Of a stretch of 44,146 nucleotides of DNA, positions 23,451 to 44,063 are shown piece after piece (position 1 is the first letter of the stretch; every line of letters begins with the position of its first letter). The position numbers and the translations under genes were made by a program. The notes beneath the pieces are model-generated. The model did no database searches, was not told the origin of the DNA, and saw nothing but the letters and a program-made list of their open reading frames with translations. Origin of the DNA: a virus (Duplodnaviria; Heunggongvirae; Uroviricota; Caudoviricetes); IMG/VR virus record IMGVR_UViG_2698536573_000002. One strand, written 5' to 3'.

Positions 23451-23716
23451 TCATCATCTCCTGCCGCACATACAACCTCACAAAAAAAATCAGCAGAATG
23501 TTTCTCCTTGAACGAATGACGCTCAAAACCGCACTCAATATCAGGCGCAAAAACATCCACCACATACGGTCTTTCAGAATGTTTGTTTTCCCAACGATAA
23601 ACCGTAGTGACGTTGAAATGTTTTAACGCTTCACGGAACTCAACGCTGCCCGTCAGGTTTTTTGAGGTCAGGTATTGCAGGAGGTTTTTTACTACTTCAC
23701 GGTCTTGTACTTTCAT
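23447..23716 (-). CDS. hypothetical protein, first gene after repeat copy 1
   Basis: 89 aa; ATG at 23716 is the last triplet of the conserved repeat, RBS GGAGA inside repeat. Confidence 0.4.
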   Translation of the reverse strand: MKVQDREVVKNLLQYLTSKNLTGSVEFREALKHFNVTTVYRWENKHSERPYVVDVFAPDIECGFERHSFKEKHSADFFCEVVCAAGDDE

Positions 23717-23825
23717 CAGATTTCTCCGGTTTAACCAGGGCGGGTATCGCTCGGTTTCGGGTATAACCTTAGGAAATTTTTTCCCACCTGTAAAGCACTT
23801 TTTATATAAATCTATAATTATATAA
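23717..23825 (-). repeat. ~109-bp promoter-bearing repeat, copy 1
   Basis: Near-identical to 29974-30082 and 40078-40187; contains TTTACA-17bp-TAAGGT, 5' leader and RBS. Confidence 0.85.
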
Positions 23826-24723: not shown

Positions 24724-24799
24724 TGGTGGCCCCTACCGGATTTGAACCGATGACCGTGCGATTATGAGTCGCCTGCTCTAACCACTAAGCTAAGGGGCC
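24724..24799 (-). tRNA. tRNA with anticodon CAT, ileX/ileY-like (tRNA-Ile2 type; Met not excluded)
   Basis: 76-nt cloverleaf: acceptor GGCCCCT/AGGGGCC, D-arm GCTTAGTGGTTAGAGC, anticodon loop CTCATAA, T-arm GGTTCAAATCC, encoded CCA. Confidence 0.8.
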
Positions 24800-28905: not shown

Positions 28906-29973
28906 TCAGGCTTTCAATAGCGATTCTTTCAGATATCGGGCATCAGCCAGGGCGTTTGGAGTAATCTTGCGAACCCATGCATTACGGGTTGGACTCCACT
29001 TAAAGGCGCGTGATTTAAGCAGCGAACGAATGTTTGCCTCTGGTTTGCCAGGGAAATAAAACAGGATGCGGTTATCCTCTGGATCTATCTCCATAGAAAA
29101 GCCGTCGTATTCTTCGCGCTGTGCTCCTGTTACAGACTTGACCGATTCAAGCTCCTTAATACGGCTCTGTAGTCGTTTGATTTCGGCATTATTGTTACTC
29201 AGTGAGTATGAAGGGAAGCCAATGTGCCCACAGAAATCTCCGGCGAGTAACCCTTTGGCTTCGCTTTCAGTAAACTCAAGGTCAATTAATGCGGAAAGCT
29301 GCTGTAATTGGTCTTTTTTGTATTTGCGAATAGCCTTATTTGCGGCCTTCATTTTGATGTGTGACTTCATGCAGCCTTGCAGCTTACGAAGCAACTTAAA
29401 TAGCGCATCAGGATCATCAGACGAAACTCCATTACGGCCGACACCTGCGGCTTTGCTTTCGTAGTACGATGCTCTGCTTTCACACTCAACAAACGATTTT
29501 CTGAATAACGCATCAGCTTTAGACAAACGGCGGCGATGGCCTTTCGCGCTATAATGGTCAACTAAAATCGGCTGGCCTAACGGGATCACATCCAACAGTT
29601 CATGCGCTCGCTTATGCGCCACCGCACCTTCTTTTCTGGCTTTTTCTGCACGAGCAATATATCGGGCAAGACGCGCGTTCTGGCGTTCCTGATAGGTATT
29701 TACGTAATCATCTCCGCGCTGCTGCTGTTCAAGCCATGCTTTGCGCAGCTTTTCTGTTACGTCTACCAACTCTGCAGGGATACAACCTGTTTGGGATTCA
29801 TAAGAGTGACCATCCTCATAAAGACGTCCATCGTCTTCAACAACGAAAAAGGTTTCGTGCTCATCGCTTTTGACCATACGGCCATTAACATGACGTAATC
29901 TATAGCCAGTATCAGTGCTCAACAGGCTGTTAGGGTTGTTGATCCAGTCAGAAATAATTACTTGTTTATTCAT
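28906..29973 (-). CDS. hypothetical protein (355 aa), first gene after repeat copy 2
   Basis: ORF 28906-30123; start at 29973 (MNKQV) preferred because it is the ATG closing the conserved repeat. Confidence 0.45.
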   Translation of the reverse strand: MNKQVIISDWINNPNSLLSTDTGYRLRHVNGRMVKSDEHETFFVVEDDGRLYEDGHSYESQTGCIPAELVDVTEKLRKAWLEQQQRGDDYVNTYQERQNARLARYIARAEKARKEGAVAHKRAHELLDVIPLGQPILVDHYSAKGHRRRLSKADALFRKSFVECESRASYYESKAAGVGRNGVSSDDPDALFKLLRKLQGCMKSHIKMKAANKAIRKYKKDQLQQLSALIDLEFTESEAKGLLAGDFCGHIGFPSYSLSNNNAEIKRLQSRIKELESVKSVTGAQREEYDGFSMEIDPEDNRILFYFPGKPEANIRSLLKSRAFKWSPTRNAWVRKITPNALADARYLKESLLKA

Positions 29974-30082
29974 CAGATTTCTCCGGTTTAACCAGGGCGG
30001 GTATCGCTCGGTTTTGGGTATAACCTTAGGAAATTTTTTCCCACCTGTAAAGCACTTTTTATATAAATCTATAATTATATAT
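29974..30082 (-). repeat. ~109-bp promoter-bearing repeat, copy 2
   Basis: One mismatch vs copy 1 over ~105 bp; -35 tgtaaa at 30046-30051, -10 acctta at 30023-30028 (plus-strand coordinates). Confidence 0.85.
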
Positions 30083-35112: not shown

Positions 35113-35136
35113 ATAAAAAAGGCCCCCGAAGGGGCC
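35113..35136 (-). terminator. intrinsic terminator (minus-strand orientation)
   Basis: ggcccc-cgaa-ggggcc hairpin followed by U6 on minus strand, directly after small ORF 35143-35265. Confidence 0.5.
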
Positions 35137-35142
35137 TAATCG

Positions 35143-35265
35143 CTACTTGCTGCTAATGTTTATCGTCACATTCAGAGCGTTATCAGTAATCTTCCAACCC
35201 TCTCCATGTGGCGTAAACAAAGCCCCAGTAACAACGATAAAAATACACATGTAGTATTTTTTCAT
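35143..35265 (-). CDS. small hydrophobic peptide (40 aa)
   Basis: MKKYYMCIFIVVTGALFTPHGEGWKITDNALNVTINISSK; RBS AAGGG; own terminator. Confidence 0.35.
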   Translation of the reverse strand: MKKYYMCIFIVVTGALFTPHGEGWKITDNALNVTINISSK

Positions 35266-35655
35266 TGTGTGGCCCTTACAGGCCGTTTCACGGCATCCCC
35301 ACCGACGAAAATGACGCGAGAGCAAGCACGCTGTTTGTGCCTGCGTGGTACGGCAAGTGGATAATCCTTTCCTGAAAGTCAGTGCCCGGGTGCGAATCGG
35401 CGGAAAGGCCCCAAGCCATATTACACGTCATACCCTTCATAATGAAGGAATAAAAAACGCTTTTATTACATGAGATTACACGTAAATAAGTTAAAAACCT
35501 TCATTTTGCATGAGCTAATGAGCTAAATTTTTTTATATGAATAGTGGACTATTCACCTCAGTTAGGTAAGAATGTAGTTGCTGTTTGTGCTTGCGTGGTT
35601 GTATTAGTACAACGACGTTATGCTGAAAGGACCGCGAATCCGATCAGCACGAAAG

Positions 35656-36419: not shown

Positions 36420-36521
36420 AATGCGCCATTGGTGGACACTTTCCGAGCCGTAGCAAAATCTACGGTCGGGATTGGAACCCCGATAATCATCATGGCGCAT
36501 ACCGCGTTAGCGGTTTTTTTA
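36420..36521 (+). ncRNA. candidate small regulatory RNA (c4-like) upstream of antirepressor operon
   Basis: TTGACA at 36412-36417; terminator accgc-gtta-gcggt + T7 at 36501-36520; short elements complementary to leader near 36603-36634. Confidence 0.3.
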
Positions 36522-36685
36522 TGCGTAAAGCACTGCTACACCCAAATTATGGTGGGGCGTGCGGGGGAGTCGTAAGACTCGCCGGATTCCATGGTGACCG
36601 GTAGTTCCAACCCTGTACGTCTCACCACCCAATGATTGGAACCAGACGGTGGTGAGTATCCTTAACCTTTAAGGGAACTATCACC

Positions 36686-36877
36686 ATGACAAACCTACCC
36701 CATGACTATTACGTCAACCTCGTAAAGATCCTTCTCAAGAAAGCCTCATACGCCGATAAATTCCGCCTGGCTGAAATCATCGAGCGCGAAGCTATGCGCA
36801 TCGCCAGCAACGATAACGCTGTTTCTGTCGCAAAAATCTCCCTCGTAACCAAAGTAGTTATGGGAGGTGCAAAATGA
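36686..36877 (+). CDS. small leader protein translationally coupled to antirepressor (icd-like position)
   Basis: 63 aa; stop TGA overlaps ant ATG (ATGA); RBS AAGGGA. Confidence 0.45.
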   Translation: MTNLPHDYYVNLVKILLKKASYADKFRLAEIIEREAMRIASNDNAVSVAKISLVTKVVMGGAK

Positions 36878-38055
36878 AAACGCTTCCGACCGTTAACACC
36901 CTACAGCCTATCCTGCATAACCAGCTCCCCGTTATCACTACTGAACTACTGGCGCAATTGTATGGAACCGAGCGCCAACGTCTGACAAACAATTTCAATA
37001 GAAACAAGGAACGTTTTATAGAAGGTAAACACTTTTTTAGGATAGAAGGTAAAGAGTTACGAGAGTTGAAGAACAAAAACTCTTTAAGAGTTCCTGTGAG
37101 AGTAGTTAACGAACCATCTTTAAGAGGGTTACAAATTCCCCCGAAAGTTCGCTCCCTCATCCTCTGGACAGAACGCGGGGCTGCACGTCACGCCAAAATG
37201 CTTGAAACTAACCAAGCGTGGGATGTGTTCGAACGGCTGGAAGACAGCTACTTCAACCAGAACGCACAAACGGCCGCGACCGTAACCGTCTCACCAAACA
37301 ATGCTCGTGAGGTTGTCGATACGCTCAACGCCAAACCAATGTATTACGTTAAGGTGTGCAACAACGAGCCACTCACAACCTCAGCCGATGTAGCCCAGGC
37401 ATTCAGCACCACAAACAATTCCATCGTTATGGCCATCGATGCATTACGCATTCCTCGCACAGCTGCGGCACGTCATTTCTTTAAAGAGCAACGACCGCTG
37501 GAAGGAAGCGACCGCGAAATAACAATCTATCGCATGACAAAAGACGGATTTACCTTGCTCATGGAAAGTATCGACGGTCCAGGCGTGAAGGATATCAAGC
37601 TGGCCTACATTGAAGCCTTTAACGCTATCAGCAGCGTGTTAAAGGCAGAATACGAGCGAATGCTATACAACCGACTGTATCAGGAAACAAAGATTATCCG
37701 AACGGCAACAGAACATCATCGGCTATTAACGGAACCAAACTACCGCAAGACACTAATCAAAGAGTTTGACAAGGCGACGGAGAAAACTAAAGCGGCACTA
37801 AATCTACCAACAATGACTAAAGATGATGTGATATCAGCCTTACTTCTTGATCTGCTCAGAAACGTCAGAGCACTTATCAGTTTTGACGAAAACCTGAATC
37901 CTCAGCTCAAGCTACTACCACCGACAGGCAAAGTAGTCGACCAAGCAGATCACAACAGCATACTCAGCGTACTGGATGCAAACCTGCCAGCCAGGACACT
38001 ACAGGAGCTGATAAAAATATCTGCGGATAAACTGGCCGCAGGTGCAAAACCATAA
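36874..38055 (+). CDS. antirepressor (ORF6N/KilA-N-like N-terminal domain plus Rha-like domain)
   Basis: 393 aa; N-terminal LPVITTELLAQLYGTERQRLTNNFNRNKERF and central MYYVKV...TIYRMTKDGFTLLM blocks. Confidence 0.6.
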   Translation: MKTLPTVNTLQPILHNQLPVITTELLAQLYGTERQRLTNNFNRNKERFIEGKHFFRIEGKELRELKNKNSLRVPVRVVNEPSLRGLQIPPKVRSLILWTERGAARHAKMLETNQAWDVFERLEDSYFNQNAQTAATVTVSPNNAREVVDTLNAKPMYYVKVCNNEPLTTSADVAQAFSTTNNSIVMAIDALRIPRTAAARHFFKEQRPLEGSDREITIYRMTKDGFTLLMESIDGPGVKDIKLAYIEAFNAISSVLKAEYERMLYNRLYQETKIIRTATEHHRLLTEPNYRKTLIKEFDKATEKTKAALNLPTMTKDDVISALLLDLLRNVRALISFDENLNPQLKLLPPTGKVVDQADHNSILSVLDANLPARTLQELIKISADKLAAGAKP

Positions 38056-38057
38056 AA

Positions 38058-38090
38058 CAAAGCGCCCGATTTGGGCGCTTCTTCAATTCT
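38058..38090. terminator. bidirectional intrinsic terminator between convergent genes
   Basis: agcgccc-gattt-gggcgct flanked by T-rich tracts on both strands. Confidence 0.5.
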
Positions 38091-38725
38091 TAATATTTCG
38101 GTGTAATCAGTAGCGATACATGCCCTGATTTGTCACGAGAAACGTAATACTCGCCTCTCTTAGTCTTGAACTCAGCTTTCTGCATATCTGATTTAACAAT
38201 CTGCTCTAACTGCGCAATCACGGTGTCTCTTTCACTTGACGCATCCAAGACTTCAACTGCTACGGCCATAGAAAGCAAGGAATCAGAGTTAGGCTTGGAT
38301 ACTCGCCATAATAACTCAGAAATCTTCCCATCCTTATCAACTCTAGCCCGACCGTTAACAGATGAGTTGATGGCAAATTCAACGGTGTTATTACCTTGTT
38401 TAACAGACTTAATTCTTATAGTGGAGGTGGCTTTTCCTGATGTAGCGATGCCTTCAAGGTCATCATTATATAACTGCTTAAACTTATCTACGGTCACACC
38501 ATCAAAAGCAGCTCCGGTAGTAGCCGCAGTGTTGGAGTCTTCTGGGATCAAGGTCACAGCCGCAAGAGTATTAACAACTACAAAAGTAGCAATCCCGAGA
38601 AAGCCACTCACTAAAACAGCTTTGAACTTACCACCAGAAGACGAGGCACATTGTTTCCGATATGCGCCACGAACTACGAAGAAACACAAAATCAGGCTAA
38701 TAATAAACGCCACCAGCATCCCCAT
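38090..38725 (-). CDS. membrane protein with two N-terminal TM helices
   Basis: 211 aa; hydrophobic segments then soluble domain; RBS AAGGAG. Confidence 0.45.
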   Translation of the reverse strand: MGMLVAFIISLILCFFVVRGAYRKQCASSSGGKFKAVLVSGFLGIATFVVVNTLAAVTLIPEDSNTAATTGAAFDGVTVDKFKQLYNDDLEGIATSGKATSTIRIKSVKQGNNTVEFAINSSVNGRARVDKDGKISELLWRVSKPNSDSLLSMAVAVEVLDASSERDTVIAQLEQIVKSDMQKAEFKTKRGEYYVSRDKSGHVSLLITPKY

Positions 38726-39290
38726 AGAAATCTCCTTTTAGATATAAGGGTAAAGCAATATCGTATTAGATCTTCCTTAAGACACAACCCCCCCTCCCCC
38801 CATACAGGGTGCCCTTTACCGGAGTTCCGGCCCCTTCTCAAAAGCATCAAAAAAAGCTCGAGATCGAGTACCGGAACTCATGCCACCAGATAGCTCCACA
38901 TCGTTTCCAATGCTTCGCCGCCGTGTGCGCCCTGTGGCCCACAATCATGCCATTGGTCGTCTGATATACCTTCTTCTGCTCATTGAGCACAGGCGAGTTG
39001 TCGCACTCCTGCCTTTCTCAGACTCGACTTAGTTTAGATCGCTGTTCCTGGCTTGCGTCAGCACACTTTCCCCTTGTACGCATACCCGCGCGCCACTTCG
39101 CCCAAAAACACCGAACCCAACGAAGTAGCAAAGACAACGACGCGAGCGTGAGTCTGAAACGTGCACCAGTAAAAAAGGGGTTGCAGGCGCAAAAAGATTT
39201 GATTATCTTTAGACGCAAGAAAGCCGCCCCAATCAAGAGGTGTCTTTTTAAATCCAGCCTACCAAGCAAGATTTAAATTTCAGACTGAAA

Positions 39291-39320
39291 ACCGCCCGGC
39301 AAGGCGGTTTTTGTCTTTCT
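39291..39320 (+). terminator. intrinsic terminator (plus strand)
   Basis: aaccgcc-cggcaa-ggcggtt followed by TTTTTGTCTTTC. Confidence 0.5.
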
Positions 39321-39360
39321 GGCGCTTACATTACACCACCATAAAACGATCCGTAAAGGA

Positions 39361-39633
39361 TCATTTGATCTCTTGTTCCAATTCTGACGACACTTTAACC
39401 TTTTCCCATACAAGGGTTTGCAGCCTTAACAGAATCGCATCTTTATCAAGGTGTGAAAGATCCTTAACCATATCGTCAAATGACAGAACGCGAATGGCCA
39501 TCTCAATGACCCTCGGCGGCTCCCCCTTCTCATATCGCTTATATGTAGCCAACGATATCCCAAATTCTTCGGCGGCTCGCTCCTGCGTCCAGTTCATCCC
39601 ACGACGCCATAATTTCAATTCATAACCCGTCAT
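39361..39633 (-). CDS. XRE-family HTH protein
   Basis: Start at MTGYEL (GGAGG 5 nt upstream); LKLWRRGMNWTQERAAEEFGISLATYKRYEKGE. Confidence 0.55.
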   Translation of the reverse strand: MTGYELKLWRRGMNWTQERAAEEFGISLATYKRYEKGEPPRVIEMAIRVLSFDDMVKDLSHLDKDAILLRLQTLVWEKVKVSSELEQEIK

Positions 39634-40077: not shown

Positions 40078-40187
40078 CGGGTTATCTCCGGTTTAACCAG
40101 GGCGGGTATCGCTCGGTTTCGGGTATAACACTAGGAAATATTTTCCCACCTGTAAAGCACTTTTTATATAAATCTATAATTATATAA
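40078..40187 (-). repeat. ~109-bp promoter-bearing repeat, copy 3
   Basis: About 95 percent identical to copies 1 and 2; same -35/-10 spacing. Confidence 0.85.
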
Positions 40188-40240
40188 TTCCATGAGCACA
40201 AAAAAGCCCCTTTGCAACAGGGGCTTATCATTCGTTCTGA

Positions 40241-40540
40241 TCAGATGTTAAACGCTATTCGTTTTCCTGTGGGAAGCTCAACATCCAGGCTTAATTTGCC
40301 TCCCATAGCTTCAACGTAACGCTTTAATGTCGCCAGCTTTAAATCATTTCCGCGCTGCTCCAGCTTTGTTACTGCTGGCTGGCTTATACCCATCGCCTCA
40401 GCAACCTGCTTTTGTGATAACTGGAGTTCTTCACGCATCATCTGCAAGCCGACCTCAAGAATCATCTCATCTGCCATTTCTTTAATTCGCGCCTGGCTTT
40501 CCGGTGAACGGCTGGCAATCACCTCATCTAATGTTCTCAT
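40241..40540 (-). CDS. HTH antitoxin (HigA-like)
   Basis: 99 aa; LQLSQKQVAEAMGISQPAVTKLEQ and C-terminal LATLKRYVEAMGGKLSLDV. Confidence 0.55.
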   Translation of the reverse strand: MRTLDEVIASRSPESQARIKEMADEMILEVGLQMMREELQLSQKQVAEAMGISQPAVTKLEQRGNDLKLATLKRYVEAMGGKLSLDVELPTGKRIAFNI

Positions 40541-40893
40541 TACTTGCTCTCCAGTGTGTTCAGATGTGCTGCAAACTCATCCTCAGCTATACGCACCAGT
40601 TTTTTATAAAACCGCTTATCGTTACTTTTGTCTCCTGCACAAAGAACGATAGCCCGGCGAATCGGATCGAACGCATAAAAGGCTCTTATCGGACGGCCAG
40701 AAAACTGAACGCGAAGCTCTTTCATATTTTTGTACCGAGAACCTTTTACGGTATCGGCATATGGCCTGGGTAACTCAGGTCCGTAAACCTGTAGCTTTTT
40801 CAAATCAGCCAAAACCTTTTCCTGAAGAGCGTCTTCTTGCTCATTTAGCCAGTCGTCAAATCGCTGGCTAAAAAGTACCGTCCACATGCTCAA
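40540..40893 (-). CDS. RelE/HigB-family toxin (Gp49-like)
   Basis: 117 aa; toxin-first order with overlapping stop/start; TVKGSRYKNMKELRVQFSGRPIRAFYAFDPIRRAIVL. Confidence 0.55.
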   Translation of the reverse strand: MSMWTVLFSQRFDDWLNEQEDALQEKVLADLKKLQVYGPELPRPYADTVKGSRYKNMKELRVQFSGRPIRAFYAFDPIRRAIVLCAGDKSNDKRFYKKLVRIAEDEFAAHLNTLESK

Positions 40894-42349: not shown

Positions 42350-43198
42350 TTAATGTTGGAGTGATTTCCAGGTCTTTCTTAGCCTGTTATAACGCTGCTC
42401 AACGAGGGATCGTAAATATGCAAGGTCAGCACCTGGATACATGCCATCAGCAAATTCCTGGCTAACCTCTCTAGTGATTTGATGACGAAGTTCGGCCTCT
42501 CCCTTTTCCCGGACAAGACGCGCAGCTCTCTCCGCTGCTTTCTGTTTTGCCTTTATCTCTCTGGCCGTCTTCCTCTGGCGCCATACATTCTCCATCTGCT
42601 CCTGAATAACAATACGCTTATAATCAGCCTCCGTTATCGCTTTTTTAAGCCGTTCGCTATTCTTCGCATTGAAGTAATTAAGTTTCTGGCTAACCGCACG
42701 TCTCCATGCTTGTTCAGTAATACCAACGGTTTCCAGCAGTTGATCACGAATCTCTATTTTCGCTGGCCAATACTGTTTATTCACCCGATCCCAGCGACGT
42801 TCATAATCAATAAAACCTAACGCTTTCAGTTGCGACAACGCCCTTGTACAGCGCGTTATAGACTTGTTCCCAGCTTCGGATACGGTAGACAGGCCGCAAA
42901 AATCAGCCAACGCCTCAGCACTAGCCAGAACCCGCTTAGAAATGATGTTTACATGGTGCAAAATCGCAGCGATCACAGCATTAATCGCCCGACGACGATG
43001 CTCGTTTATCCGGCGCTTCCGCTCTGACGGTTGATTAACGTAGAACGCAACCTCACACGTAAGATCACGCCCATTAATGCGCTGTAAAGCATCAGATAAC
43101 ACCAGCGGCAGCTTGTGCGTATGGTGCTTTGGAGGCTGGAACTCCGGCGACAAATTACAAACGTAAGCTGAACGTAGAGACGGCATTGGTCTATCCAT
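42350..43198 (-). CDS. repA: replication initiation protein, IncFII RepA1 family
   Basis: Contains KSITRCTRALSQLKALGFIDY block resembling R100/R1 RepA1 as I recall it; ORF open to 43327, internal ATG at 43198 gives ~283 aa; upstream part is leader targeted by antisense RNA. Confidence 0.7.
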   Translation of the reverse strand: MDRPMPSLRSAYVCNLSPEFQPPKHHTHKLPLVLSDALQRINGRDLTCEVAFYVNQPSERKRRINEHRRRAINAVIAAILHHVNIISKRVLASAEALADFCGLSTVSEAGNKSITRCTRALSQLKALGFIDYERRWDRVNKQYWPAKIEIRDQLLETVGITEQAWRRAVSQKLNYFNAKNSERLKKAITEADYKRIVIQEQMENVWRQRKTAREIKAKQKAAERAARLVREKGEAELRHQITREVSQEFADGMYPGADLAYLRSLVEQRYNRLRKTWKSLQH

Positions 43199-43242
43199 AT
43201 GTTCGCTCTTGCGTCCACGGAAAACCAACGTATAATGGGAGT

Positions 43243-43320
43243 TGTCGAGGCGCCCATGGTTAGTTGTTGGTTTTCCGTGGATGTCGCAAGAAGCCCGCAG
43301 ATTTATCTGCGGGCTTTTTG
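43243..43320 (+). ncRNA. antisense RNA to repA leader (CopA/RNAI-like)
   Basis: Plus-strand promoter TTGCGT-16bp-TATAAT (43209-43236); terminator gcccgcag-atttat-ctgcgggc + T-run at 43293-43323; fully within repA leader. Confidence 0.55.
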
Positions 43321-43362
43321 TTTCCATATCTGGTCACTTTCCAACCAGACACCCACAATCAT

Positions 43363-43508: not shown

Positions 43509-44063
43509 TCAATGATTCCCAGCCGGAAACCTGCGGTAAAGCGTGGATAAAGTAACATCGAAGATAATCGCTATCCGCTTACGTGAAACACCATTCGCAA
43601 TAAGCCTTCCGATCTGTTCCCATTGCTCTGGTGACAGCTTTGAGCGGCGTCCTCCGATCCTGCCGTTAGCCCTTGCCACCGCCAATCCTGCACGCGTTCT
43701 TTCAATCATATTTTCCCGCTCCATCTCTGCGACTGCACTCAGCATCGTGTAGGCAAAGCGGCCAATTGAAGTGCTAATTTTTATCCCTTCCGTAATCGAA
43801 ATAAACTCAATGTTGTTTGATAAAAAATGGTTAAGTAAATCAACAAGATGAATCAGGGAACGCCCCATTCGGTCCAGCTTCCAGACAATAACCGTATCGC
43901 CCGGCCGTAACACCTTAAGTAGCTTATCAAGTCCTGGTCGTTTTGATTTAGCACCGGATATTTTATCTTCAAAAATCCGGTCACATCCTAAACTCCTGAG
44001 CGCCTCCAGTTGTAATTCCAAATTCTGGTCAAAAGTTGACACCCTCGCATAACCATATTGCAT
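43509..44063 (-). CDS. serine recombinase, DNA invertase (Gin/Cin/Pin/Hin family)
   Basis: 184 aa; GYARVSTFDQ catalytic Ser, VWKLDRMGRS, AEMERE, GRIGGR, C-terminal HTH LSTLYRR. Confidence 0.8.
   Translation of the reverse strand: MQYGYARVSTFDQNLELQLEALRSLGCDRIFEDKISGAKSKRPGLDKLLKVLRPGDTVIVWKLDRMGRSLIHLVDLLNHFLSNNIEFISITEGIKISTSIGRFAYTMLSAVAEMERENMIERTRAGLAVARANGRIGGRRSKLSPEQWEQIGRLIANGVSRKRIAIIFDVTLSTLYRRFPAGNH

Follow-up and report, generated by a model that had tools for sequence, protein, structure and literature searches.

In ColE1-type plasmids, whose replication is RNA-primed (theta class B), runs of G serve the formation of an R-loop, a persistent RNA-DNA hybrid. A diverged origin module of this type is probably what occupies the gap at positions 38,726 to 39,360 of a tailed phage-plasmid sequence, IMG/VR virus record IMGVR_UViG_2698536573_000002, which was analysed over its whole length of 44,146 nucleotides (nt) and is called the window here. 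ColE1-type replicons were catalogued by Ares-Arroyo et al. (2021; PMC8683028), who searched RefSeq with origin and RNA I profiles, recovered 1,035 plasmids, and pointed out that distant variants could have escaped these profiles. The same authors left open whether the ColE1 origin fires in co-integrates with other replicons (PMC8683028). We checked six accessions of the phage-plasmid family studied here, and none was present in the supplementary files of the 1,035-plasmid catalogue (PMC8683028). RNA-based replication of extrachromosomal prophages has been shown in cluster A mycobacteriophages, among them RedRock and Alma (Wetzel et al., 2020; PMC7157519). In the literature that we searched, neither the present family nor a ColE1-like origin in an enterobacterial phage-plasmid was described.

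The conserved gap and its homology to ColE1-type origins

The gene-free gap is real and lies between the minus-strand open reading frames (ORFs) 38090-38725 and 39361-39633/39666. As the preliminary description of this DNA had stated, its largest plus-strand ORF is 38983-39276, with 97 aa and a TTG start, and the plus-strand terminator reported there was found at 39286-39313 (11 pairs, a 6-nt loop, and a T5 run followed by TCTTTCTGGC). The terminator scan, over 3 kb, gave 8 such sites, compared with 2.6 +/- 1.4 in shuffles. What that description most likely missed is the identity of the element as a ColE1-type replication origin. The conserved unit spans ~38777-39362 (~590 bp), and the first ~50 bp of the interval (38726-38775) are part of a variable neighbouring cargo gene. 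Because the homology breakpoint at 38775-38777 is abrupt and the left neighbour differs between variants, the unit is ~38777-39362 and is not the leader of a downstream gene. Neither PGAP nor GenBank places a feature here in the E. coli plasmid records that were listed or in the three Yersinia phage records.

The hypothesis of a ColE1-type origin was set beforehand and then tested with reciprocal nhmmer profiles. The ColE1-family profile was made from nine origins, those of ColE1 and of eight plasmids 74-86% identical to it; the ColE1 reference was L143, in which Rfam places RNA I at 645-749. This profile matched the window solely at 39379-39287 on the minus strand (E = 2.6e-5) and matched every variant of the element at the equivalent place, and in 1.4 Mb of sequence from 161 loci it matched only copies of the element. 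In the other direction, the element profile matched ColE1-family origins collinearly over ~550 nt (model positions 5-571) in the RNA II sense, with E values of 3e-8 for L148 and 1e-6 for L144. Its score of 24.7 bits compared with at most 3.2 bits in 100 dinucleotide shuffles, and a second real score of 15.5 bits compared with at most 2.7 bits in such shuffles. In a profile-profile alignment, 49% of the consensus columns were identical, and the blocks common to both families were the GATC hairpin with the -35, the -10 GTAATNT, stem-loop 1, both G-runs, GCGCAC, GGAAACG, and the origin box. The relationship was undetected by blastn against 72,556 plasmids. The aligned blocks are as follows.

Promoter hairpin and -10: ColE1 family AAAGGATCTTCTTGAGATCC...GTAATCT; element AAATGATCCTTTACGGATCG...GTAATGT
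Stem-loop 1: ColE1 family, nearly identical in L150; element AAAAACCGCCTTGCCGGGCGGTTTT
Upstream G-run: ColE1 family GAACGGGGGGTTCGTGC; element ACAAGGGGAAAGTGTGC
Conserved box: ColE1 family GAGCGCACGAGGGAGC; element AGGGCGCACACGGCGGCG
Second conserved box: ColE1 family GGGGGAAACGCC; element TTGGAAACGAT
Origin box: ColE1 family CAGGGGGGCGGAGCCTATGGAAAAACGCC; element GAAGGGGCCGGAACTCCGGTAAAGGGCACC

Read beside ColE1, the minus strand has a -35 within a GATC-flanked hairpin, a TAATNT -10, a start 7 nt further on, ACAAAAACCGCC... opening stem-loop 1, and later the G-runs. The spacing is also similar. From the predicted start it is ~485 nt to the second G-run and ~520-533 nt to a G6AG7 tract that closes the module, and the ColE1 start lies ~531 nt from the origin-proximal G-run. 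The predicted start (39320) is ~506 nt from the origin-homologous site and 533-541 nt from the end of the G-tract. The two G-runs are ~237 nt apart in the element and ~245 nt apart in ColE1. The parts of the module are listed below.

39357-39328, minus strand: predicted RNA II promoter, with -35 TTTACG at 39357-39352, an 18-nt spacer, -10 TAATGT at 39333-39328, and the start 7 nt downstream
38780-39320, minus strand: putative RNA II-like preprimer of ~510-540 nt, with a predicted start at the A at 39320 and a predicted course leftward past the origin-homologous site (~38812-38816) as far as the G6AG7 tract, at whose end it would stop
39348-39362, no strand assigned: GATC-flanked hairpin GATCCGTAAAGGATC, overlapping the RNA II -35 and found by the terminator scan
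39181-39209, plus strand: predicted RNA I promoter, read from the sequence, with -35 TTGCAG at 39181-39186, a 17-nt spacer, and -10 TATCTT at 39204-39209
39216-39318, plus strand: predicted RNA I-like antisense RNA of ~100 nt, with stem-loops at 39219-39248, 39249-39275, and 39282-39316
39286-39313, plus strand: putative RNA I terminator, which is also RNA II stem-loop 1 and the terminator of the preliminary description (AAAAACCGCCTTGCCGGGCGGTTTT)
39092-39129, minus strand: hairpin with an invariant 20-nt loop (RNA CGUUGGGUUCRGUGUUUUUGG) on a fast-evolving, compensated stem
39067-39077, minus strand: upstream G-run (RNA CAAGGGGAAAG), invariant in all variants and aligned with ColE1 GAACGGGGGGTTC, ~265 nt upstream of the ColE1 origin
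38808-38838, minus strand: origin core, nearly invariant, whose G-run GAAGGGGCCGGAACTCCGGTAAAGGGCACC aligns with ColE1 CAGGGGGGCGGAGCCTATGGAAAAACGCC
38788-38801, minus strand: G6AG7 tract (C7TC6 on the plus strand), closing the module; homology between variants ends ~10-12 nt beyond it

The predicted RNA II promoter aligns with the ColE1 promoter TTGAGA-17-TAATCT and with the ColE1 start context. In L022, a 69%-identical copy of the module on an unrelated viral contig, the hexamers of this promoter persist (TTTGCG / TATCTT) and those of the RNA I promoter read TTGCGC-17-TATCTT, with the spacer diverged in both. The hairpin at 39348-39362 is equivalent in position and sequence to the ColE1 GGATCTTCTTGAGATCC hairpin and is kept in every variant, L022 differing from the others in the loop alone; it is possibly also the terminator of the upstream helix-turn-helix (HTH) gene. 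The counterpart of the invariant second G-run GAAGGGGCCGG (38828-38838) by alignment is the ColE1 G-run that precedes the origin by ~20 nt, and the switch from RNA to DNA is predicted at ~38812-38816 from this alignment. The G6AG7 tract lies 12-25 nt past the origin-homologous site, where ColE1 has no counterpart. It is identical in the window, Yersinia, Salmonella, L029, L156, and L022, and its sole change is G6AG5TG in L161. The tract may act as an R-loop stabiliser, a primer end, or an RNA polymerase pause site. The features that are invariant even in L022 are the C7TC6 tract, the 20-nt loop, the segment TATCTTTAGACGCAAGAAAGCCGCCCC, the terminator hairpin, and the GATCCGYAAAGGATC hairpin.

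RNA structure, strand, and coding potential

A consensus fold was calculated in the minus-strand sense from an alignment of seven variants. It contains 152 pairs, with 97% of the cells paired, and 24 of the pairs were changed on both sides, compared with 7.6 +/- 1.9 in shuffles (0 of 500 shuffles reached 24) and at most 6 in slid controls. The plus-strand fold was weaker, with 132 pairs and a covariation term of +1.7 vs -4.3 for the minus strand in a matching six-sequence alignment. In helices shared by both strands with Watson-Crick pairs only, the mismatch cells on the minus strand were G.U in 22 cases and A.C in 7; the cells depend on one another, and L022 contributes a large share of this signal. 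Both the asymmetry of G.U and A.C cells and the covariation favour a structured RNA from the minus strand. Single-sequence folding gave similar values for the two strands (z = -2.55 and -2.64), so that strand choice is impossible by that method. Compensation is clear in the hairpin at 39092-39129 (helix 10), where 6 of 13 pairs have double changes; its stem is CACTTCG/CGAAGTA in the window and TTTTACCG/CGGTAAAA in L022, and the loop is unchanged.

Selection at the RNA level bears directly on the suggestion in the preliminary description that the region could be a decayed gene whose terminator survives. Overlapping short ORFs do tile both strands, and the GC skew is the same as that of the flanking minus-strand genes. 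However, ten ORF translations from the region had no credible Pfam or PHROG match, no minus-strand ORF is kept across all seven variants, and variants differ by 1-nt indels. The 97-aa ORF (38983-39276) is interrupted in the Salmonella-type and L022 variants. A 50-aa ORF at 38880-39032 is common to six of the seven variants and absent in L022, and its differences, counted from the translations, are mostly amino-acid-changing. In a hand count on the variant alignment, substitutions had no third-codon-position bias. Moreover, the region is more conserved than nearby real genes and shows compensation of the RNA type. A decayed protein-coding gene is thus extremely unlikely here, since no ORF is kept across the variants, 1-nt indels are tolerated, and no protein family is matched. 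Blastn against phages, plasmids, and E. coli genomes matched only the same phage-plasmid family.

The other suggestion, of a plus-strand non-coding transcript, stood in part. The region is functional non-coding DNA that encodes RNA, and the terminator most plausibly ends such an RNA; the predicted plus-strand transcript covers only ~100 nt and not 630 bp, and most of the region would be template for the minus-strand RNA, the main product. This RNA I-like molecule is fully complementary to the first ~100 nt of the putative RNA II-like transcript. When folded as a 105-nt RNA, it forms three stem-loops in the window, Salmonella, and L022 (z = -3.1 to -4.0), and ColE1 RNA I folded alongside has the same layout. 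In stem-loop 3, 4 of 6 loop positions vary and 0 of 9 stem pairs do; changes in the stem of stem-loop 2 are compensatory, and the loops of stem-loops 1 and 2 differ between lineages as well. Such fast-changing loops on fixed stems are expected of kissing-loop specificity (incompatibility) determinants and would be consistent with that role here.

A convergent short antisense RNA with a terminator is also what a type I toxin-antitoxin system of the hok/sok kind would have, in which a structured mRNA of ~400-500 nt with a 5'-3' fold-back encodes a small toxic peptide and is repressed by the antisense RNA. The plasmid-maintenance neighbourhood agrees with this, as does a predicted long-range pairing of the C/U-rich stretch at ~39170-39187 with the 3' G-tract. 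However, the locus has no conserved small ORF and no hydrophobic peptide, and there was no hok/sok-type match in Rfam. The antisense RNA covers the extreme 5' end, as in ColE1, and not the translation-initiation region. Together with the direct sequence homology to ColE1 origins, these points make a hok/sok-like system highly improbable, to the same degree as a decayed gene.

Covariance models gave nothing at the gathering score inside the region, where the Rfam match was to RNAI and below threshold. The gathering scan of the window returned only ryfA, C4, isrK, and one tRNA, all outside the region. Permissive scans added, within the region, only sub-threshold RNAI and Phe-leader matches driven by the terminator hairpin.

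Some other candidates were considered and dropped. For a XerCD/cer site, TGCGTACAA fits the XerC arm and there is no XerD arm. An attP, cos, or pac site was dropped as an idea, and so was a retron or the template of a diversity-generating retroelement, because no reverse transcriptase is present.

The host phage-plasmid and the distribution of the module

The window is most of a ~48-kb phage-plasmid with P2-type tail, baseplate, and capsid genes and ParA. The element also has a P1-like c4/isrK/antirepressor immunity region, a HigB/HigA pair, a Hin invertase, and a replication protein of the IncFII family, which makes it a dual-replicon phage-plasmid if the module is counted as the second replicon.

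42350-43327, minus strand: IncFII-family RepA (Pfam PF02387, E = 1e-43; NCBIfam RepA_IncFII_LM, 231 bits)

Among 5,426 complete E. coli genomes, 72 (~1.3%), including ATCC 25922, had the 635-bp region at 95-100% identity, and the carriers were almost always plasmids of ~47-50 kb. Three Yersinia phages also carry it, as do three Salmonella plasmids in which the identity is ~89%, and the phage-plasmid lineage that carries the module has Escherichia, Salmonella, and Klebsiella hosts as well as phages isolated on Yersinia. MOB-suite assigned no replicon type to these plasmids. The module and an IncFII-type repA occurred together in 62 of 62 PLSDB records. In comparisons of E. coli with Salmonella versions, identity is 85-91% for the module, 62-81% for the flanking genes, and 78% for repA, so that the module is the most constrained sequence of the locus.

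Other variants were L029 (90%) and the metagenomic L156 (91%), L161 (83%), and L167 (96%), and only ~6-9 distinct variants exist. Four motif scans of viral contigs gave the same 10 loci, and a metagenome scan added three new variants; a scan for the C7TC6 tract alone was non-specific, with more than 100 unrelated viral contigs matched. Two of the metagenomic copies are shortened. In L161 (258-750), 51 nt are missing that correspond exactly to the variable-stem hairpin (~39086-39136 of the window), that is, helix 10 is precisely deleted, and G6AG5TG replaces G6AG7. In L167 (2429-2948), 22 nt are missing within the long central hairpin. These may be defective copies or assembly artefacts, or the hairpins may be dispensable. 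Synteny through the adjacent HTH protein led to loci in Serratia and Providencia, all of which were without the element.

In the most divergent copy, L022 (a 14-kb locus), a tail-fibre gene stands on one side of the module and small genes on the other; partition genes of ParA-like and ribbon-helix-helix-like type, identified from their translations only, lie at a distance of ~1.5 kb. This copy is informative on a further explanation, in which the hairpin at 39286-39313 terminates transcription in both directions, among them that of the upstream minus-strand HTH gene, and the remainder is meaningless spacer. With A-runs on one side and T-runs on the other, the hairpin is symmetric and could function on the minus strand too; it lies 48-75 nt past the HTH stop codon on that strand. 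In L022, however, the hairpin and the whole 590 bp are kept, and the upstream gene there is the unrelated tail-fibre gene. In addition, no other stretch of the locus is as conserved as the supposed spacer, which is homologous to ColE1 origins. We therefore regard an HTH-gene terminator with inert spacer as very unlikely.

The slot past the G6AG7 tract varies among relatives. In the window it holds a 211-aa protein without a family match (38090-38725, minus strand), in ATCC 25922 and the Yersinia phages a 61-aa ORF, and in Salmonella Weltevreden a Rha-family gene on the opposite strand. This variation points to a hot spot of recombination bordering the origin, comprising the cargo slot 38726-38775 and the gene 38090-38725.

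Several other features of the window were recorded. The isrK RNA (36447-36520, plus strand, 70 bits) and the C4 antisense RNA (36545-36632, plus strand, 84 bits), both found with Rfam, lie just upstream of an antirepressor with ORF6N/Rha domains (36874-38055, plus strand), an arrangement like the immI immunity module of P1/P7. A full-length ryfA (35115-35413, minus strand; 135 bits vs a gathering score of 80) lies between the ParA and c4 regions, and ryfA loci encode a type I toxin in enterobacteria. The HigB/HigA-like toxin-antitoxin pair is at 40241-40893 on the minus strand, the Hin-type DNA invertase at 43509-44063 on the minus strand adjoins repA, and a tRNA-Met at 24724-24799 on the minus strand lies among the structural genes. 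A repeat of ~110 nt (TCATCAGATTTCTCCGGTTTAACCAGGGCGGGTATCGCTCGG...CTATAATTATATA) is near-identical at 23713-23825 and 29970-30081 and partial and inverted at ~40130-40200; it is kept in a Salmonella relative (L003, 4302-4421) and may be a reiterated promoter or operator of the phage-plasmid. The plus-strand GC skew is negative in each 2-kb window from 1 to 44,000, which is compatible with a minus-strand location of nearly all genes or with unidirectional replication in which the minus strand is leading. As the skew is uniformly negative, it does not locate an origin.

Function of the module and comparison with known systems

Taken by analogy with ColE1, the mechanism could be as follows. A sigma-70-type promoter at 39357-39328 on the minus strand would start an RNA II-like transcript at ~39320, and this RNA would take up a multi-helix fold over ~510-540 nt. 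RNA II would then stay R-looped on the C-rich template near the origin core (38838-38808) and the G6AG7 tract (38801-38788), RNase H would cut the R-loop as it does in ColE1, and DNA polymerase I would extend leftward. From the convergent promoter at 39181-39209, an RNA I-like RNA of ~100 nt (39216-~39318) with three stem-loops would be made and would end at the terminator at 39286-39313. Kissing-loop pairing of RNA I with the 5' end of nascent RNA II would block primer formation and so set copy number and incompatibility. The module may be a second plasmid replicon beside the IncFII-type RepA, or a lytic origin. That it is an active origin is, in our judgement, somewhat favoured, and we hold this with less confidence than the assignment to the ColE1 type.

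Several observations weigh against these readings. The Rfam RNAI model (RF00106) did not reach its gathering score of 47, scoring 18.1 bits on the plus strand (39241-39314) and 16.7 bits on the minus strand; these sub-threshold scores are near equal on the two strands and are driven mainly by the terminator hairpin, and L022 is similar. The predicted RNA II and RNA I promoters each have 8 of 12 consensus matches, which is below the threshold of a strict promoter scan, so that neither was listed by the scan. Most compensatory changes come from one divergent sequence, L022, and the variants are few. The module is always accompanied by an IncFII-type repA (62/62 in PLSDB), so it is not necessarily needed for maintenance and could be silent, and with this complete co-occurrence natural variation cannot separate the module from repA. 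A high-copy ColE1-type origin might be costly in a 48-kb prophage-plasmid. The module has no conserved primosome assembly site downstream of it, because the flank there is variable cargo. Finally, L161 and L167 have internal deletions.

Some of these facts would fit a relic or co-opted ColE1 origin, in which the RNA pair is still made, no priming occurs, and RepA does all replication; the RNAs might then serve as an incompatibility or exclusion determinant, or the locus as a regulatory or insulating element beside the cargo slot. An intact IncFII-family repA is always present, and the surroundings have no annotated rop, mob, or cer genes and a downstream flank that varies. ColE1 has nothing equivalent at the position of the G6AG7 tract, and internally deleted variants exist. 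However, conservation is among the highest in the origin-proximal blocks (the G-runs and the origin box), which is hard to explain if the antisense pair alone mattered. Compensated helices extend across the whole 540 nt, the module is more conserved than repA, and in L022 the intact unit was moved into another phage, beside partition genes. A relic of this kind is therefore considered improbable, and a diverged ColE1-type origin module remains the preferred reading.

A more specific proposal can be made, which we regard as speculative and rather unlikely in its full form. RepA would hold the prophage at low copy, and the RNA II / RNA I module would be a switchable origin that depends on host factors only and amplifies the DNA in lytic growth, once RNA II from read-through or induction exceeds RNA I. 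The part of the G6AG7 tract would be to lock the R-loop or set the primer end, in convergence with the mitochondrial G-tract primer site, and the tract would mark a recombination-prone boundary at which cargo is swapped. Alternatively, relatives such as L022 could have the module as their only plasmid replicon. If true, a tailed phage would for the first time be shown to use a ColE1-homologous origin.

The assignment gives a function to a conserved, unannotated gap of 0.6 kb in a phage-plasmid family and points to an RNA-based replicon that is missed by current replicon typing. The known sequences of the ColE1 family become more diverse, and its habitat grows beyond small multicopy plasmids to include a tailed phage. 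The element may also provide a natural case of coordination between an RNA-primed origin and an IncFII RepA origin in lysogeny and lytic growth. Incompatibility or copy-number cross-talk is possible, and a new compatible vector origin and better classification of plasmids and phage-plasmids may follow. One carrier, ATCC 25922, is a quality-control strain.

Phage P1 is a dual-replicon element, with oriR/RepA for plasmid maintenance and oriL/RepL for lytic growth. Like P1, the present element is a phage-plasmid with two replication modules and a c4/ant immunity region nearby. Unlike P1, its second module would be RNA-primed and without an initiator protein. The G6AG7 tract resembles the conserved sequence block II of human mitochondrial DNA (G-run, A, G-run), which, like retroviral polypurine tracts, is an R-loop or G-tract primer site, and rG:dC hybrids are unusually stable. 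In each case an uninterrupted G-rich RNA segment lies where a transcript is, or here would be, turned into a DNA primer. The likeness offers a lead on mechanism only and implies no evolutionary relationship.

The cluster A mycobacteriophages are similar by description in having an extrachromosomal prophage with a non-coding RNA replication module near partition genes (PMC7157519), and in L022 the module is likewise ~1.5 kb from ParA-like genes. Their hosts are Actinobacteria, they lack repA and replicate at 1-2 copies per cell, and no antisense control is noted for them (PMC7157519). In ColE1 co-integrates (ColE1/IncC, ColE1/IncF, and ColE1/IncN), as in the element, a ColE1-type origin stands beside a protein-dependent replicon. 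The co-integrate origins have the canonical ColE1 sequence and are described as brought by transposases or recombinases (PMC8683028), whereas the module here is deeply diverged and is a stable part of the backbone.

The closest likeness is to the replicons of ColE1, pMB1, and p15A. They share with the element a GATC hairpin with the -35, a TAATNT -10, two G-runs ~240 nt apart, the origin box GG(A/T)AAA..GCC, and an antisense RNA, in the element a predicted one, that has a length of ~100 nt, three stem-loops, and an intrinsic terminator. ColE1-type plasmids are small, mobilizable, and multicopy, whereas the host of the module is a 48-kb non-mobilizable phage-plasmid; the module also differs in the lack of annotated rop, mob, and cer nearby and in the invariant G6AG7 that closely follows the origin-homologous site. 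The most fitting classification is as a new and strongly diverged ColE1-type origin, carried by an unusual element, a P2-like phage-plasmid with an IncFII RepA.

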